Positions 10,646 to 57,192 of a DNA stretch of 64,000 bases are shown piece after piece; position 1 is the first letter of the stretch; each line of letters opens with the position of its first letter. The stretch lies in NCBI GenBank assembly GCA_044361745.1, contig JBIKIF010000001.1, positions 90,274 to 154,273 on the forward strand. Reading direction: 5' to 3'. The notes beneath the pieces are model-generated. The model was not told the origin of the DNA and made no database searches. It saw nothing but the letters and a program-made list of their open reading frames with translations. Source of the stretch: Holosporales bacterium. Lineage in GTDB: Bacteria; Pseudomonadota; Alphaproteobacteria; Holosporales; CAZGKG01. The position numbers and the translations under genes are program-made.

Positions 10646-13600
10646 TTAAGTCTTAGAAGCGGTTTTTGGGGTGGCTTTTGCTTTGGCCGGTTGGGGTTTG
10701 TGATCTTTAGGTGGGCAAGGCCCTCCGCTTCCGCAGGGGTCGGGGACGAGACTTTTGAGAGGTCTTTTGACAACCACAGGCTCTGACGGTTCGAGTGCCT
10801 CTAAATCTGGTGCCTCCGTAGGGAATGGGGAAAGCGCCAGTGGTTCAAAGCTCTCTGCTCCCTCTTTTTGAGTCTTTACACTCATAAAGATAAGAGCACT
10901 GGAAGGGGTTGCAGGGGAGGGATTGTCCGGAAGATCCTCGGGAGGATAGGAAAGATTTTTCAAAACCGTTGGGATTCGGAAGCGCAGGGTTGTTGGATCC
11001 GGATCTTCATTTTTTGTAAAATCAGAACCCTTAGCTTTTTGAAGGTCGAGCATCCGGAGGAGAGACCAGCATCCCTTAAATGTATAGGTTGCGCTTTGTG
11101 CATCCACACTCAAGGCCGACTGGGTTGAATCAATCGTTGGGCGGTAGGAGCTGCCCAAGGCCCAGCGCATCCCAACAGTGATTGGTGCGCCAGAAGCCCA
11201 ACGGGTCAGCGCCTTTTCTTTGGAGAAGTCAAAAGTTTCCTCTCCGATAGTGACAGTCCATGCAATGATCTGGTTCCCATTTTTTTCAGTGTCTTTGTTG
11301 GTACGGAAAATGACCTGAAGTGGCAGAGACGGTTCGACTGTTTTGTCACTGGGGCTTGTGGTCAAAGGCCTAAAGAATTTCCTCAGCTCAGTCATTTGCT
11401 TGATAAACAGCAGGGCTTTTTCAAGATGGGGTTTTGAAGCTTTTTGTTTTTTCAAAAATTCCTGAGCAAACAAAGCATTTTTATCAAATAAACTGTAAAA
11501 GGCGGCCACTTGATCCGGCTGTGCATCTGGATAATTCACAAATCCTTTAGGAACAAAAGGATAGCGGCCAGACAGATTTTTATTAAAGAAGTTTGCAATT
11601 TTGACGTAGCCGTCTTGAGCTGATTTTTGGCTGACATTTTTACACTGGCCCTCAAGGGATGCGCGAATGGTTTGCAAAACGTCCATGAAAAAGTTTTTCC
11701 GAGGACCTTTCACAACGCGCAGCATCAGAGGGCAATTCGCGAGAGTCATGTTCGGCAAATCTTTTAAAATAAATCCTTCGAGGGCATGAATAGAATTCGG
11801 GGATTTTTGGTCTAGCAAAGTCAACTGTCCAAGAATACTTTGCCATTTCCGTGCGACTCCAGGGAGTGAGCCATGCTCGTTGAGAAATCCCAGAAGTTTG
11901 AGAGGTGGATCAATAAATTCTCTCGCGATATAACGAATCCGGTTTCGCGTCATGAGCAAGCGATCTCTCAGCTCATTTTCATTCTGGACGCCAAACACAT
12001 GAAACATAGATCCCTTGCCCCCTTTCCAGCGGCTGAGGGCGGTGAGGTTCAATTGGTAAGGACCCTCTTCTTCTACAATGAAATCAATCCGTTCCAAAAT
12101 AGAAAGGGTTTGCTGGGTAAGAATTTCTTTTAATTGTCCTGCAAGGTGGGTTTCCCCCAACGTTTCAAGGCTTTTGAGGATTTCTATAAACAAAGGCGTT
12201 GTGGCCCGCAAATTTTGAACCATCGGTAGGTAAACGGCCTCAGGCGTTGTTTTTGAAACGAATGGATCGAGCGGCCCCTTTTGTTGGGCGGCGGCAAGCT
12301 TTTTTTGGGCAGCTTGAGCAAGGCTTTTCAAGCAAATCGAACGGAGAGTTATCTGAGTTCTTTTTGGCAGTGCAGACGTTTTTTTTATAAAAAAGTCTTG
12401 GAACTCTTTAATAAGAGTCGTTACGTCTCTCAGAATTGCATAATTCCAGATGATTTCCTCACCCGGATCAATTGTGGTATCAAAATGCGCAGAGCCTTGA
12501 ACAGACATAAAGGATTGAGCCAAAAGCAGGTTCAAAAACCCTTGTAAATTCGAAACAGATGGCGCAATGGAAGAGCCCGCACTTTGTTTGAAATCAAAAA
12601 GGGATCCGGTCAGAGGCGTTTTATAGGCAACTAAGCCTCCTCGGAATCCTTGAAAAGCCGTTTCACATCTTTTGAGGAAATCATCTGTGACTGATGATGA
12701 GAAAAAATTAGAACTGACAATATTCTTCACCAAAAGATCAAAATCAGGGCCTGGGAGAAATGTCTTGCGTGTCATCCATTTGGAGTCTTGATTGGTGAAC
12801 AAGGCAATGGAGTCTGTTAAATTTTCGACTAAATAACGGAGCTGTTCCATTTTGTAGGATGATGTGGCCCGATAAAATTCATCCAGTGCTTTTTTTAAGG
12901 ATTCAATCTGAGGGGTCAGCTTTGAAGGGCTGAGGCTTTCGACCAAGAAATCTTTAATGAGCTTCTCGAGGCGTTCATTCGCTTTGGATGAGTATTCATA
13001 GAACCCGATCGGTTCAATCTGAATATGGCTTAAAGCGCTTCGATACAGTTCCCCATTATTTTGGTAGAACTCTTTAGGCAGGGGAGTTTTAAATAATTGC
13101 TCTACAATGAAGCCAAAATCTTCAAGACTCGCTGTGTCTTTGAGTTCATTAAATTTAAGGATCATTTTCTGGGCATTTGTGAGGGTGTCTACGTACTGTT
13201 TAAGAATCAAAAAGGGAAGCGTACGGATTGGGTTCACCCCTTCTGTCTGTTTTTGAGGTGATTGCAAGGTTGGGAGATGCCCAGAGATCGCTTCATCAAT
13301 CTGATCTCTGATACGAGCAGAAATGGCTTTGAGAATGACCACATTGTAGGCGACTGTGAGAACCTTGCTCAAACGATTTTCGAGAGGGCTGAGCCAAGAG
13401 GCTGGGATAAGAGGGAGAAACAGATGCTCTGTTCGGACGTTTTGCATAGACCGAATGATGAGTTGAGCTTGCTGTTGAAAGAACGCATGGTCAGACGCGA
13501 GATAATTCTTATCTGAGAGAGATCTTTGAATGCCATACCCAATGCGGTTCAGGCTTGGTAGAATCGCCATCCGGGTTTCCACAAGGCGATTGTAAGAGTA

Positions 13601-14935
13601 GATGAGCCCCACAAAGCCCAACAATGAAAAGAATCCAACGCCCATTTGGAAAAATCGCAAGGCCCGGTTGTTGGATAAAATTCTTTGACGCACAAATTGA
13701 ACCAAGCCTTTTTCAGGAAAAATCTTCCCCCGAAACAGGGCCGTTGAAAAATAAATGGATCGTTTTTGGAGTTTGATTTGAGGGCTGGTCTCCCCGTCTT
13801 CCTTCGTGGTCTGCAATGCGTTGCCCAGAGACTCCTCCATCGTTCTTTGAAGTGTGGTGTCGACATTCGTGTCGACAGTTCCATCTCCGGTAAAGTAAAC
13901 ACCTCTAAAAAAGAAATGTTCGCTGAGCTTGCTAATCTGAAAAAGATGATTCAGGCAGAGGCTGAGAGGTTCGTGAAGATTTGCAAATTCTCTGGGAAAC
14001 AGCAGAACCCCATCTCGTTCGGCATAAACTTTCCCCCGGGTAAAAATCTCCTGCTGGAGATAAATGAGTTGCTCAGAGAGGGAGTGGAACAATTCGTCAC
14101 ACCAAATAGGTTGATAGGGCATTTCGAGAGGGTAAGGATTTGACCAGCCGAAGGCATTATCCCGGTTCTCCGGTGGGATTTCGTGACAAAAGCTCGTAAA
14201 GCCTGGAATCAAATCGCAGTGGGTGACAATGATGAATACAGGAATCTTCAGCCCTAAGACTCTTTGAATCTGCCACAATTTTGAATACAGAACCTCGGCG
14301 CGTGCTGCAAGTTCATCACTGGAGCAGTTCTTGAGTTCATGGGCCGAGAGCGTTAGGACAATGCCATCCATCGGGCGGTTTGAACGATGGTTTTGGAGAA
14401 GATCAAGGAGCAACCGCCATTCTTCTTCCCGAGAAAAGAGTCCATCTTTTTGGAGAACCAGCTGACCGCTGACGTCTAAGACCACCGCTTGATCAAAGAA
14501 CCACCAGTTACAAAGAGCGCTTCGATCAACAGTCGCGGGTGCGCCGACAGGAAGGGGGAGTCGTAGGCTTTCAATGAGGGTTGTTTTGCCGGCTCCTTCG
14601 GCGCCAACCATCACAAACCAAGGGAGCCGATACCGATAGCCTCGCCCCCCGACAATTTCCCGCATTAATCGCAACGCATAGGCAAAAGATTGGCTCAGGG
14701 GATCTTTTGGAAAATATCCCAATCTAGCAAAAAAATACCCAATGCTCTTCTTGCGTTTCTGCCAAGGTGTGAGCTCTTGAGGGGACTCCTCAGAGGCACT
14801 GTCTTGTTCTAAAGTTTGAGGGTGTAATAGGCCTCTCAAAAACCAAAACAGCCATCCGCATAAAACAAAACCAATGACTAGGGAGCTAACCCAGACCCAG
14901 AATGTTGTAGAGCTCAAAAACGTCACCAAATTCAT
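10646..14935 (-). CDS. tssM: type VI secretion system membrane subunit TssM (IcmF)
   Basis: 1429 aa. N-terminal TM segments, Walker A GAEGAGKTTLIES, a third TM near residue 430, a large periplasmic region and a Pro/Lys-rich tail. Confidence 0.9.
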   Translation of the reverse strand: MNLVTFLSSTTFWVWVSSLVIGFVLCGWLFWFLRGLLHPQTLEQDSASEESPQELTPWQKRKKSIGYFFARLGYFPKDPLSQSFAYALRLMREIVGGRGYRYRLPWFVMVGAEGAGKTTLIESLRLPLPVGAPATVDRSALCNWWFFDQAVVLDVSGQLVLQKDGLFSREEEWRLLLDLLQNHRSNRPMDGIVLTLSAHELKNCSSDELAARAEVLYSKLWQIQRVLGLKIPVFIIVTHCDLIPGFTSFCHEIPPENRDNAFGWSNPYPLEMPYQPIWCDELFHSLSEQLIYLQQEIFTRGKVYAERDGVLLFPREFANLHEPLSLCLNHLFQISKLSEHFFFRGVYFTGDGTVDTNVDTTLQRTMEESLGNALQTTKEDGETSPQIKLQKRSIYFSTALFRGKIFPEKGLVQFVRQRILSNNRALRFFQMGVGFFSLLGFVGLIYSYNRLVETRMAILPSLNRIGYGIQRSLSDKNYLASDHAFFQQQAQLIIRSMQNVRTEHLFLPLIPASWLSPLENRLSKVLTVAYNVVILKAISARIRDQIDEAISGHLPTLQSPQKQTEGVNPIRTLPFLILKQYVDTLTNAQKMILKFNELKDTASLEDFGFIVEQLFKTPLPKEFYQNNGELYRSALSHIQIEPIGFYEYSSKANERLEKLIKDFLVESLSPSKLTPQIESLKKALDEFYRATSSYKMEQLRYLVENLTDSIALFTNQDSKWMTRKTFLPGPDFDLLVKNIVSSNFFSSSVTDDFLKRCETAFQGFRGGLVAYKTPLTGSLFDFKQSAGSSIAPSVSNLQGFLNLLLAQSFMSVQGSAHFDTTIDPGEEIIWNYAILRDVTTLIKEFQDFFIKKTSALPKRTQITLRSICLKSLAQAAQKKLAAAQQKGPLDPFVSKTTPEAVYLPMVQNLRATTPLFIEILKSLETLGETHLAGQLKEILTQQTLSILERIDFIVEEEGPYQLNLTALSRWKGGKGSMFHVFGVQNENELRDRLLMTRNRIRYIAREFIDPPLKLLGFLNEHGSLPGVARKWQSILGQLTLLDQKSPNSIHALEGFILKDLPNMTLANCPLMLRVVKGPRKNFFMDVLQTIRASLEGQCKNVSQKSAQDGYVKIANFFNKNLSGRYPFVPKGFVNYPDAQPDQVAAFYSLFDKNALFAQEFLKKQKASKPHLEKALLFIKQMTELRKFFRPLTTSPSDKTVEPSLPLQVIFRTNKDTEKNGNQIIAWTVTIGEETFDFSKEKALTRWASGAPITVGMRWALGSSYRPTIDSTQSALSVDAQSATYTFKGCWSLLRMLDLQKAKGSDFTKNEDPDPTTLRFRIPTVLKNLSYPPEDLPDNPSPATPSSALIFMSVKTQKEGAESFEPLALSPFPTEAPDLEALEPSEPVVVKRPLKSLVPDPCGSGGPCPPKDHKPQPAKAKATPKTASKT

Positions 14936-55356: not shown

Positions 55357-55665
55357 TCAGCTAATCATTGGTCCTGATCCATAAGGATTACAAGCTTTTT
55401 GGCATGAGCTGAAGTCTGATGCACATCCAAGGCCACCTCCCAGCATGTTGGAACCAGCGGACACTTCGCATCCCACCATCGTTGAAAAACATCTTTTAAG
55501 GCACTTCTGAGACGATTCAGTTTCTGGTTGGGTATCTTCCGTCCAAGAATGAGGTGATAGAAATGGTATTTTTGAGGAGCTTGAACATTTTTCCAGTAAG
55601 ATCCCTGAAAACACCCCAGAAACAAAGAAAACAACAGAAAGTGACCAAAAAGTACTTTTTTTCAT
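55357..55665 (-). CDS. hypothetical small secreted Cys-rich protein
   Basis: 102 aa. Signal peptide MKKSTFWSLSVVFFVSGVFSG. Eight Cys residues, including CLKRC and SCQKAC. Confidence 0.4.
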   Translation of the reverse strand: MKKSTFWSLSVVFFVSGVFSGILLEKCSSSSKIPFLSPHSWTEDTQPETESSQKCLKRCFSTMVGCEVSAGSNMLGGGLGCASDFSSCQKACNPYGSGPMIS

Positions 55666-55784
55666 GAATCCTCCCCTATTTTAAAGGTCATAAATCATTA
55701 TAACAGATATTTTTTCGTGACGCATCGGCATTTTTAAAAGCGTAATGGAAAGAGGGGGGAAGGCTCAAGGAGGAGAACTTATGA

Positions 55785-56135
55785 AGCAGAGGCTGGGAAC
55801 GCACAGAACACGGGCTCGAATCTATAGACAGCGCTTACCGTGGAGGTTCCATTGAGGAATTTGTGGAGGAGAAGCTTCTGACGAACAAGCGGCAGAAACG
55901 GGCGTATCGGGGCAAGCCGCTCAAGGGGCATCAAAAGCGCGCCAACACATCTCGGGGCAAAGTTCGGGCTAAGATGGAGCCCGTGTTTGCGTGGAACAAA
56001 AACGGGCGACAACGGTTCTAGAGTCCCAGTATTGGCCTGGTGCGTGCGGGATTTGCCATCGGCCCGCACACCTTGATTGATCATATGCGCCGGCTGGCAT
56101 TCTTGTCTTTGAAAGATATTGATTGGAATTCTTGA
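55785..56135 (+). mobile_element. IS5-family (DDE_Tnp_1) transposase C-terminal remnant with internal TAG
   Basis: The frame reads ...IDSAYRGGSIEEFVEEKLL...AYRGKPLKGHQKRANTSRGKVRAKMEPVFAWNKNGRQRF(TAG)SPSIGLVRAGFAIGPHTLIDHMRRLAFL. This matches the D.AY / R.RVEHVF..K / GL.R......L.YN..R pattern of IS5-type transposases. The N-terminal two thirds are absent. Confidence 0.65.
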
Positions 56136-56183
56136 GCCAGACCCCCCTTAAATCAATCTTAAAAAAATATAAAACACCCAAAC

Positions 56184-56205
56184 AAAGGGGAAAAATTCCC
56201 CTTTT
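56184..56205. terminator. bidirectional intrinsic terminator hairpin
   Basis: AAAGGGGAA aaa TTCCCCTTT, a perfect 9-bp stem flanked by A- and T-runs. It lies 3' of the repeat-lipoprotein gene and of the IS remnant. Confidence 0.55.
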
Positions 56206-56245
56206 CAAACATTTTTAGTCTGCCTCTGCAGGTGAAGACTCAGAA

Positions 56246-57028
56246 TCACGGGGTACTATCAGGCATCGCAAGAAGATTATTTTTGTTTTGGATTGTTTTT
56301 ACAATGTCACCGTATGTATCGATAGGTCCGACAGTGTTTATCAACGATTCGATGGCTTCTGCGAGGGTTGTTGTATCTGAGTTAATCTTATTGATGGCAC
56401 CGAGGTTCCCGGTGAGTTGTTTGTAGACGTCATCGGCCTCTCCCCCAGTGACGTTTCCGATAGCGCTTTGCACAGCGGTGACAGCTGTGGCCAAAACGGT
56501 TCCTCCGGCTTGTAACGCCGTTGTGGAAGTATTGACATTGGTGAAAACGTCACTTGTTGCTAACCCACCGACAGCGTCTTTCACATCGGTGACAGCTGTG
56601 GCCAAAACGGTTCCTCCGGCTTGTAACGCCGTTGTGGAAGTATTGACATTGGTGAAAACGTCACTTGTTGCTAACCCACCGACAGCGTCTTTCACACCGG
56701 CGACAGCTGTGGCCAAATCGGTTGCTCTGGTGTTTAACGCCGTTGTGGAAGTACTGACATTGGCGACAACGTCACTTGCTACTCCACCGACAGCGTCTTT
56801 CACAGCGGTGACAGCTTTTATGAGTTTAGCCTCTAATACGAGAATACTTGCTTGGGCGCCGATTGTTTGTGCAATGTCACTGTCGTCATCGATAGATCCG
56901 ATCTTTGTGATCACAGCTTGGACAGATTCTGTAAGGTTATTATTTGGTGGGGTGCCTTTGACAGGCGTGAGAGACGATCCGCAAGCCAAAAGCGCCATGG
57001 TCCATAAAATTTTGTGATGTGTGTGCAT
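56246..57028 (-). CDS. repeat-containing surface lipoprotein
   Basis: Lipobox LLACGSS. Central 37-aa units TAVTDVKDAVGGLATSDVFTNVNTSTTALQAGGTVLA. The N- and C-terminal flanks resemble each other (SVQAVITKIGSIDDDSDIAQTI versus AIESLINTVGPIDTYGDIVKTI). Confidence 0.7.
   Translation of the reverse strand: MHTHHKILWTMALLACGSSLTPVKGTPPNNNLTESVQAVITKIGSIDDDSDIAQTIGAQASILVLEAKLIKAVTAVKDAVGGVASDVVANVSTSTTALNTRATDLATAVAGVKDAVGGLATSDVFTNVNTSTTALQAGGTVLATAVTDVKDAVGGLATSDVFTNVNTSTTALQAGGTVLATAVTAVQSAIGNVTGGEADDVYKQLTGNLGAINKINSDTTTLAEAIESLINTVGPIDTYGDIVKTIQNKNNLLAMPDSTP
56477..56806 (-). repeat. in-frame tandem repeat, units of 111, 111 and 108 bp
   Basis: Unit 1 (56477-56587) and unit 2 (56588-56698) differ at one base by direct comparison. 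Unit 3 (56699-56806) is diverged and one codon shorter. Confidence 0.9.
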
Positions 57029-57192
57029 TCTGATATCCCCCTACAAGATTTAATTTTTAAAAGACTTATTTTTGTCTGATTTATACAAAATTATCTATAA
57101 AAGTCAATATATTATTTTTTTAAATAAAATTTTGGGATCGCCAGGGGGGGGAGAGATGCAACGGCGCTGAAAGGGCTTTTGCAAAAAGAGGG

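Follow-up and report, generated by a model that had tools for sequence, protein, structure and literature searches.

The stretch of DNA under study comprises 64,000 nucleotides of contig JBIKIF010000001.1 from a Holosporales bacterium (hereafter, the window) and carries, adjacent to mraZ and on the minus strand, a complete gene for a 260-aa probable lipoprotein containing near-identical tandem repeats. Synteny at this locus extends over mraZ, rsmH, ftsL and ftsI on one side of the gene and over a 102-aa open reading frame (ORF), an MFS transporter gene and lptD on the other side. An earlier examination of the window, based on its letters alone (the sequence-only reading), had proposed that the repeats are substrates for size or antigenic variation of an exposed lipoprotein of no recognized family. 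The data presented below support size variation and the lack of a known family, but not antigenic variation in its immunological sense. In fact, the variation at this locus exceeds what had been proposed and includes mosaic alleles, replacement of the mature region, a ratio of nonsynonymous to synonymous substitutions (dN/dS) of at least 1 and paralogs sharing a conserved 5' cassette.

The ORF product starts with MHTHHKILWTMALLAC|GSS, continuing with GSSLTPVKGTPPNNN. Its N-terminus is laid out as a basic n-region followed by a nine-residue hydrophobic core, the LLAC motif and a tether rich in Gly, Ser, Thr and Pro. The segment MHTHHK-ILWTMALLA-C16 (LLAC) conforms to the lipobox rule [LVI]-x-[GAS]-C with a Cys near residue 15-35, and the sequence ALLACGS.LTPVK, including Cys16, is invariant in all ten family members retrieved (see below), which bears out a lipoprotein-type signal sequence. 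The predicted mature protein (244 aa, 24 kDa, pI 4.2) is made up for one half of Thr, Ala, Val and Gly and is devoid of Cys, Trp and His. Upstream of the coding sequence, the Shine-Dalgarno-like (SD-like) site is kept as GGAG/GGGA across alleles and paralogs, and a promoter-like pair of hexamers can be discerned which was not called by a consensus scanner, because the rule of this program for the second hexamer requires T at position 6. A hairpin past the stop codon (56201-56188) has a GC stem followed by a T-run, as detected by a terminator scan. Preference is given to the minus-strand ORF, which has the SD-like site and the terminator as well as the conserved signal peptide and the homologs, and an overlapping plus-strand ORF (56448-57017, 189 aa) has been treated, on indirect grounds, as a shadow of the repeat.

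Within this ORF, and in frame with it, a single tandem array was found by TRF (91% matches, score 578; Table 1), and an independent repeat finder run on the window recovered the same array as its array family D1. In the phase adopted by the sequence-only reading, the units at 56477-56587 and 56588-56698 differ at a single position (56586, T/C, leading to Asp versus Gly), as had been claimed. The third unit (56699-56806) is 108 nt long, shorter by one codon, and it is 85.6-86.5% identical to the other two in an alignment with one 3-nt gap, in agreement with its description as diverged. The 37-aa length assigned to the encoded module is also correct, but the module sequence quoted had only 35 residues, the complete unit being [G/D]V followed by these 35. 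The longest perfect match at period 111 spans 110 nt, a repeat which is unattainable by chance, and the 16-nt direct repeat CACAGCGGTGACAGCT which brackets the array was observed twice against zero matches expected. TRF found no contingency tract of short units (1-9 nt) in the gene, the unit being 111 nt and always in frame.

Table 1. Features of the lipoprotein gene and its array, in window coordinates.
Feature	Position	Strand	Basis or remark
Complete gene, 260-aa probable lipoprotein	56246-57028	-	ORF list, translation, identical product P0001 in public collection
Putative signal peptide with lipobox MHTHHKILWTMALLA-C16	56981-57028	-	Read from sequence
Shine-Dalgarno-like GGGGGA, 7 nt 5' of ATG	57036-57041	-	Sequence; putative function
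Promoter-like TTGACT-16 nt-TATAAA	57080-57107	-	By eye; conserved in seven aligned 5' regions; putative
Conserved 3' box (TGATTCTGAGTCTTCACCTGCAGAGG...) with terminator-like hairpin at 56188-56201	56150-56248	-	Terminator scan
TRF tandem array	56457-56816	n/a	Period 111, 3.3 copies
Pair of perfect 110-nt direct repeats	56476-56696	n/a	56476-56585 + 56587-56696; may sustain slippage or unequal recombination
16-nt direct repeat CACAGCGGTGACAGCT, proximal copy	56471-56486	n/a	Brackets array together with distal copy
16-nt direct repeat CACAGCGGTGACAGCT, distal copy	56801-56816	n/a	Brackets array with proximal copy
Module R1 (aa 35-71), type 'SDIAQTIGAQ...'	56816-56926	-	Anchor motif at aa 35; resembles R6
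Module R2 (aa 72-107), diverged 108-nt unit	56708-56815	-	85.6-86.5% identical to R3 and R4
Module R3 (aa 108-144), first copy of duplicated 111-nt unit	56597-56707	-	98.2% identical to R4
Module R4 (aa 145-181), second copy of duplicated unit	56486-56596	-	Sequence comparison
Module R5 (aa 182-224), type 'ADDVYKQLT...GAINKINSD..TLAEAI'	56357-56485	-	Anchor motif; resembles R2
Module R6 + C-terminal tail (aa 225-260)	56249-56356	-	Anchor motif; resembles R1

The repetition extends beyond the array. Occurrences of the motif A[VI]xx[VL]xxx[VI]G at residues 35, 72, 108, 145, 182 and 225 delimit six modules of 36-43 aa (R1 to R6), so that, judged by this periodicity, the entire mature protein is composed of six degenerate modules of ~37 aa behind the LLAC signal sequence. 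Comparison of R1 with R6 gave a z-score of 7.2 and that of R2 with R5 a z-score of 7.0 (500 shuffles each), confirming the resemblance noted earlier between the N- and C-terminal segments, which are alike because they appear to be older copies of the same kind of module. The R5 module type is the one amplified in the paralogs P0005, P0006 and P0008. The junctions between modules read GTCGCC|GGTGTGAAAGAC (R2|R3), GTCACC|GATGTGAAAGAC (R3|R4) and GTCACC|GCTGTGCAAAGC (R4|R5), the ACC-GAT of the R3|R4 junction being present only in alleles with at least three units. Structure prediction, one of the checks suggested by the sequence-only reading, led in two AlphaFold runs (one on a 7-sequence alignment, the other on the mature protein alone) to low-confidence models made of helices only, broken near GG-x-x-SD turns. 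A Foldseek search of the PDB with the second model returned nothing at E <= 0.001 and generic helical bundles only, and hence no fold match.

The orthologous locus has been compared in four other metagenome assemblies, referred to as P0002, L001, L002 and L094. Copy number of the units was found to be three in the window, two in P0002, two (diverged) in L001 and zero in L002, so that the module-number variation anticipated from the repeats does occur at this locus, P0002 being possibly a collapsed sequence. Compared by protein sequence and gene coordinates, P0002 (223 aa) is the window protein minus exactly one 37-aa unit and is otherwise identical, as are the intergenic distances. In L001 (P0003, 227 aa), the two units are 92% identical to each other. 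In L002 (P0004, 149 aa), the deletion junction (CTCATAAA|AGCTGTCACCGCTGTGCAAGG) falls exactly in the 16-nt repeat CACAGCGGTGACAGCT, and in L094 (P0009, 210 aa) the modules are different ones, with a separate 108-nt array. The age of the duplication can also be approached with these alleles. R3 and unit U2 of L001 are 94.6% identical, which is about the divergence of the flanks (95% identical). As R3 and R4 share 98.2% identity, their duplication post-dates the split from the L001 lineage and, on these figures, the gain of one unit in the window genome is very recent.

Beyond copy number, whole segments of the gene have different histories. In the N-terminal part of the mature region, L002 matches L001 at 135 of 137 bases and the window at 121, while its C-terminal tail is identical to the window over 72 of 72 bases and matches L001 at 40 of 66. 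For this tail, L001 differs at 26 of the 66 aligned bases, to which 15 gap columns must be added. The 3' flank of L002 is also window-like (98/99 bases). Judged from these matches, L002 is a mosaic allele. A more radical exchange is seen in L094, whose MraZ, RsmH, FtsI, GreA and NrdR proteins are 97.8-100% identical to those of the window, while the lipoprotein is only 36.8% identical. The 3' box, which is kept in L001 and L002, is present there in two copies: the box belonging to the gene is immediately followed by 57 nt left over from an L001-type 3' coding end (…QRDALSNLIEGISINP*), after which come the second 3' box and a copy of the terminator (the whole at L094:8102-8260). This remnant and the additional 3' box can be read as the scar of a cassette replacement.

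The substitution pattern, estimated by the Nei-Gojobori method, similarly sets the gene apart from its neighbors. For the flanking genes, dN/dS ranges from 0 to 0.21, with dS of 0.02-0.10 and dN <= 0.009, whereas the mature region of the lipoprotein gives a dN/dS of 1.25 (dN 0.159) between the window and L001. Broken down by segment, the same comparison gives 2.85 for R1, 2.45 for the array and 1.06 for R5 and R6 together. Between the window and L002, dN/dS is 2.0 over the whole ORF, and between the window and L094 the mature region is saturated (dS 0.69, dN 0.59). Collectively, dN in the gene is 15-20 times that of the flanks, and the gene shows 62 nonsynonymous and 18 synonymous changes, against 8 and 30, respectively, for the flanks (Fisher p = 6e-9). 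Pseudogene-like decay appears unlikely, since all 10 ORFs are intact, length differences always correspond to whole codons and the signal peptide is invariant.

The lipoprotein is not alone. An ENA metagenome set (prefix GROS21-1) contains P0005 (408 aa), P0006 (321 aa), P0007 (183 aa), P0008 (259 aa) and P0010 in addition to the locus ortholog P0009, amounting to at least five paralogs in a related population. The seven 5' regions aligned are near-identical from about -95 to +90 and define a cassette of ~185 nt (ACATCACAAAATTTTATGGA[C/G]CAT[G/A]GCGCTTTTGGCTTGCGG) which includes the promoter-like region, the ribosome-binding site and the signal peptide. Because each has its own promoter-like region, the paralogs seen do not appear to be silent cassettes. 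Many of their contigs are short and break off ~134 nt before the ATG, which is what a sequence present in several copies would lead one to expect. The module types which have been amplified differ, with units of 150 nt in P0008 and 108 nt in P0009, and arrays of 150, 108 or 111 nt among the paralogs. P0008 and P0006 are arranged in tandem and adjoin an IS66 transposase gene. A gene for a MobA/MobL relaxase is found ~4 kb away from P0005. On the contig concerned (L003:1973-10780), this paralog has as neighbors an 835-aa ORF without Pfam family and a relaxase of 1657 aa (MobA/MobL-helicase-Toprim), and the family may travel on a conjugative or mobilizable element.

Membership of the family is extremely restricted. 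Searching 5.8 billion protein clusters retrieved 8 family proteins, and a profile search of 1.84 billion representatives added 2 further members, otherwise returning weak repeat-like proteins; a second profile search of the 5.8 billion clusters led to the same 10 proteins only. Sequence-profile searches of Pfam, NCBIfam, PHROGs and the PDB gave no match over a curated threshold, and the earlier statement that no family could be recognized thus holds. The sole recurring family was Baculo_PEP_C (PF04513), with 24.7 bits for the window protein, 26.4 for P0005 and 32.5 for P0009. Membership was rejected as all scores are under the 38-bit gathering cut-off, and these matches, which concern a helical repeat-like region, probably reflect composition and periodicity and not homology. 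No relatives were found in GTDB species representatives or in JGI metagenome contigs, searched with a DNA pattern and a protein profile, nor in IMG/VR, 72,556 plasmids or 50,697 phages, and PHROGs gave nothing above noise. As far as these searches reach, the lipoprotein is an orphan family without known relatives. A periodic motif of this type (…TVLNTALTDLGSAIGGVSG…) and a separate 144-nt tandem array are found in a 327-aa protein from an unrelated metagenome (P0012 on L095, JGI 3300012732). The match of this protein to the family profile is weak (E = 1.5e-5) and may point to a distant analogue or to a helical repeat that arose by convergence.

Regarding the surroundings of the gene, the 102-aa ORF (55357-55665, minus strand) encodes an N-terminal hydrophobic segment and nine Cys and is without Pfam family. 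It occupies this position in every syntenic contig and hardly varies (dN 0 against L001). Between this ORF and the lipoprotein gene, part of an IS5-like transposase, C-terminal and frameshifted (…SAYRGG…RGKVRAKMEPVFAWNKNGRQRF*), was recognized by eye at 55780-56100 (plus strand). This remnant is conserved in the syntenic loci and, being frameshifted and without Pfam match, was rejected as a functional partner. Upstream of the -35 hexamer, two homopolymers are present on the gene strand, A7 (57115-57121) and C8 (57144-57151), which vary between alleles, with C6 in L001 and L084 and a 10-nt A-rich insertion in L001. As these tracts lie outside the promoter spacer, an effect on expression is speculative. 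The L002 contig (ENA k119_57497) starts with the Nextera mosaic-end adapter GATGTGTATAAGAGACAG (L002:1-18), which was kept in the public assembly. Elsewhere, the window encodes DnaX with a DUF3646 C-terminal domain, pyruvate dehydrogenase, ThyX, Lpt proteins and flagellar export proteins, as well as type VI secretion genes for VgrG (Phage_GPD, Gp5_C; 4862-7024, minus strand) and a 1429-aa TssM/IcmF-like protein (10646-14935, minus strand). Its PdhB is at most 76% identical to that of any GTDB species representative, the top matches being metagenome-assembled alphaproteobacterial genomes.

Considering these data together, the interpretation which we favor, with a probability of roughly 0.6, is that of a lineage-specific, hypervariable, all-helical envelope lipoprotein whose diversity would stem from the exchange of cassettes and from slippage or recombination involving its modules. 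Such a protein is probably anchored in the outer membrane and exposed. Unequal recombination or replication slippage between adjacent modules would add or remove whole 111-nt units in frame, and homologous recombination between alleles and paralogs would generate mosaic genes and replace entire mature regions. The invariant 5' cassette (promoter, ribosome-binding site and signal peptide) and the conserved 3' box could serve as crossover anchors, while amino-acid substitutions would build up rapidly in the mature region. Since at least one of the alleles originates from the surface water of a eutrophic lake, antibody-driven antigenic variation is unlikely and the term, in its immunological sense, is doubtful here. 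Selection would more plausibly come from phages, from grazers or from a eukaryotic host than from antibodies.

Several points weigh against this interpretation. The sequences establish the anatomy of the gene, the recent duplication, the differences in module number and content among alleles, the mosaicism, the raised dN and the existence of paralogs; we infer lipid modification, exposure, expression, the copy-number mechanism and diversification under an agent recognizing the surface. Lipid modification is graded as likely only, because the strict PROSITE-style lipobox pattern, {DERK}(6)-[LIVMFWSTAG](2)-[LIVMFYSTAGCQ]-[AGS]-C, misses by one residue: K6 falls within the six-residue uncharged stretch, and the pattern matches if five residues are required. 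The AlphaFold models have pLDDT values of 46.5 and 52.9, a low confidence which is good for the statement "all helical" only. The window contains a single copy of the gene, with neither paralogs nor silent cassettes over its 64 kb; the search for such sequences suggested earlier came back empty in the window, and it is the metagenomes of the related population which contain at least five paralogs. The allele comparisons are made between assemblies and populations, not within one clone. In addition, the cleanest comparison, that of three with two units, relies on a short-read co-assembly. The P0002 contig (IMG 3300059473) was obtained by assembling 471 Illumina metagenomes of Lake Mendota (PRJNA1056043) together with MetaHipMer. 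This is an iterative de Bruijn assembler, by which perfect tandem repeats of 110 nt can be collapsed when the largest k does not reach the repeat length. The two-unit allele of P0002 may therefore be a collapsed repeat. The three-unit form is not equally at risk, because the ACC-GAT of its R3|R4 junction is absent from the two-unit allele, nor are the differences seen in L001, L002 and L094 collapse artefacts, since these sequences are too diverged or too short. Finally, at the counts available, dN/dS is not significantly above 1, and positive selection on the mature region is for this reason suggested and not proven; neutral drift of a poorly constrained protein may also account for the ratio.

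This last point leads to what is, with the possibility of a dedicated expression site discussed thereafter, the most serious of the alternatives, although we regard it as unlikely: the gene would be a dispensable orphan coding for a helical low-complexity filler, in which repeat changes, mosaicism and a dN/dS close to 1 are by-products of neutral churn. Several comparisons do give dN/dS of 0.9-1.4, not significantly above 1. The extreme narrowness of the family, with 10 proteins in 5.8 billion clusters, and the lack of a family or fold assignment also speak for this view, and the existence of the zero-unit allele shows that the array is dispensable. However, each of the ten alleles and paralogs keeps an intact ORF with whole-codon length differences. 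Drift also accounts poorly for the near-invariance of the promoter-like region, ribosome-binding site and signal peptide next to saturated mature parts (dS 0.69), for an expansion to at least five copies in one population and for dN/dS of 2.4-2.9 in R1 and the array.

A more elaborate version of cassette exchange would make the mraZ-adjacent gene a dedicated expression site, into which cassettes or modules are swapped with paralogs, some of them on mobile elements. In such a system, the ~185-nt 5' cassette and the ~95-nt 3' box would act as anchors between which helical modules of 36-50 aa are swapped, and the duplicated 3' box of L094 with its leftover 3' coding fragment would be scars of the exchange. 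We consider this proposal as tentative and rather doubtful. If true, it would represent programmed surface variation in a free-living or protist-associated freshwater alphaproteobacterium, a property which has so far been tied to animal pathogens.

A protein of this kind could also face inward. As a helical rod standing on the outer membrane in the periplasm, a structural lipoprotein could tune envelope spacing through its number of modules, as does Braun's lipoprotein (Lpp). In Escherichia coli, Lol sorting is such that the absence of Asp at position +2 favors outer-membrane targeting, and the Gly-Ser following Cys16 lacks Asp at this position; the all-helical prediction and the length changes in discrete modules would also suit a strut. 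Nevertheless, this role is highly improbable, considering that 1) the protein ends with ...LLAMPDSTP and so has no C-terminal Lys for peptidoglycan attachment, and no Lpp model figures among the Pfam and NCBIfam matches, 2) near-total replacement beside housekeeping genes which are 98-100% identical, with a dN 15-20 times that of the flanks, is hard to explain for a spacer and 3) lengths of 149-408 aa within one lineage would imply wildly different spacings.

Even harder to credit is an exclusion or immunity lipoprotein borne by mobile elements (conjugative entry exclusion, phage superinfection exclusion or immunity to type VI secretion) whose variation would track that of an attacker. The relaxase gene near P0005, the IS66 transposase next to P0006 and P0008, the VgrG and TssM encoded in the window and the IS5-like remnant seen by eye just downstream of the gene are all compatible with this view. 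In contrast, the window copy and its orthologs occupy a stable chromosomal site between mraZ and the MFS transporter gene, with no adjacent effector, relaxase or phage gene, and the searches reported above returned nothing above noise in PHROGs and no match in plasmids, phages and IMG/VR. We also know of no exclusion or immunity lipoprotein built of tandem helical modules. As for an artefact of metagenome assembly having created the near-identical repeat or the copy-number differences, it is the least credible of these explanations: all sequences are indeed metagenomic, P0002 stems from an iterative de Bruijn co-assembly, the L002 contig opens with an adapter and many paralog contigs break ~134 nt upstream of the ATG, but the R3|R4 junction cannot arise from two-unit reads, the L001 units (92% identical) and the 16-nt repeat at the L002 junction are too diverged or too short to collapse, and the gene architecture agrees across independent assemblies from different projects.

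Variable lipoprotein families with conserved export signals and repeats able to expand are classically known as means by which Mycoplasma, Ureaplasma and Borrelia evade immunity. If the interpretation of a hypervariable envelope lipoprotein is correct, the same logic would operate, with non-homologous proteins, in an uncultured alphaproteobacterium from lakes, where phages, grazers or protist hosts would be the selective agents. Tandem repeats are by themselves common in putative surface proteins; what deserves attention here is that a freshwater alphaproteobacterium shows such extreme hypervariability at a single locus and has a gene family with a conserved cassette. With a hypervariable gene set between flanks which are ~95% identical in DNA and 98-100% identical in protein, the locus is also a sharp natural marker, which could be used to track the turnover of surface alleles and repeat numbers across the 20-year Lake Mendota time series.

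Among known systems, the streptococcal M protein and the alpha C and Rib proteins are fibrillar surface proteins with long, near-identical in-frame repeats, in which changes in unit number alter size and recognition. Whole repeats are reportedly deleted or duplicated in these proteins by intragenic recombination. The M protein is in addition alpha-helical, as is predicted for the lipoprotein described here. Unlike the latter, these streptococcal proteins are anchored to the wall through LPXTG motifs and encoded by single genes without family-wide 5' cassette, and there is no homology between them and the lipoprotein. In Campylobacter fetus sap and Borrelia vmp/vls, a common 5' segment is followed by a variable remainder which recombination swaps at an expression site, using promoterless silent cassettes or a single invertible promoter. 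The lipoprotein gene is reminiscent of these systems in that its mature region is replaced while the boxes on the 5' and 3' sides are conserved, with a 3' remnant left in L094. In contrast to them, a promoter-like region precedes each of the paralogs seen here, and the search of the window for silent cassettes was negative.

The closest parallel is offered by the variable lipoproteins of mollicutes, in which repeat number sets protein length and modulates shielding versus adhesion (PMC12815946, PMC7954426). The Vlp proteins of Mycoplasma hyorhinis, Vsa of M. pulmonis, Vsp of M. bovis and the Ureaplasma MBA are multigene lipoproteins with a conserved 5' region and signal peptide, whose mature regions consist of in-frame tandem repeats in variable number. 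The present family differs from Vlp and Vsa in several respects. It has no sequence homology with them (Pfam and NCBIfam at E up to 10), and its host is a diderm freshwater alphaproteobacterium, not a wall-less animal pathogen. Its units are longer (36-50 aa), helical and few (0-3), whereas those of Mycoplasma are short, extended and numerous. Its 16-nt promoter spacer is without homopolymer, no inverted repeats were found around the gene, and its variation is known between assemblies and not as clonal switching, with one copy in the window. Like Vlp and Vsa, however, the lipoprotein family combines a conserved 5' cassette with divergent mature regions, module arrays and alleles of 0, 2 or 3 units, and it is by this arrangement that it resembles, by analogy and without homology, the variable surface lipoproteins of Mycoplasma.

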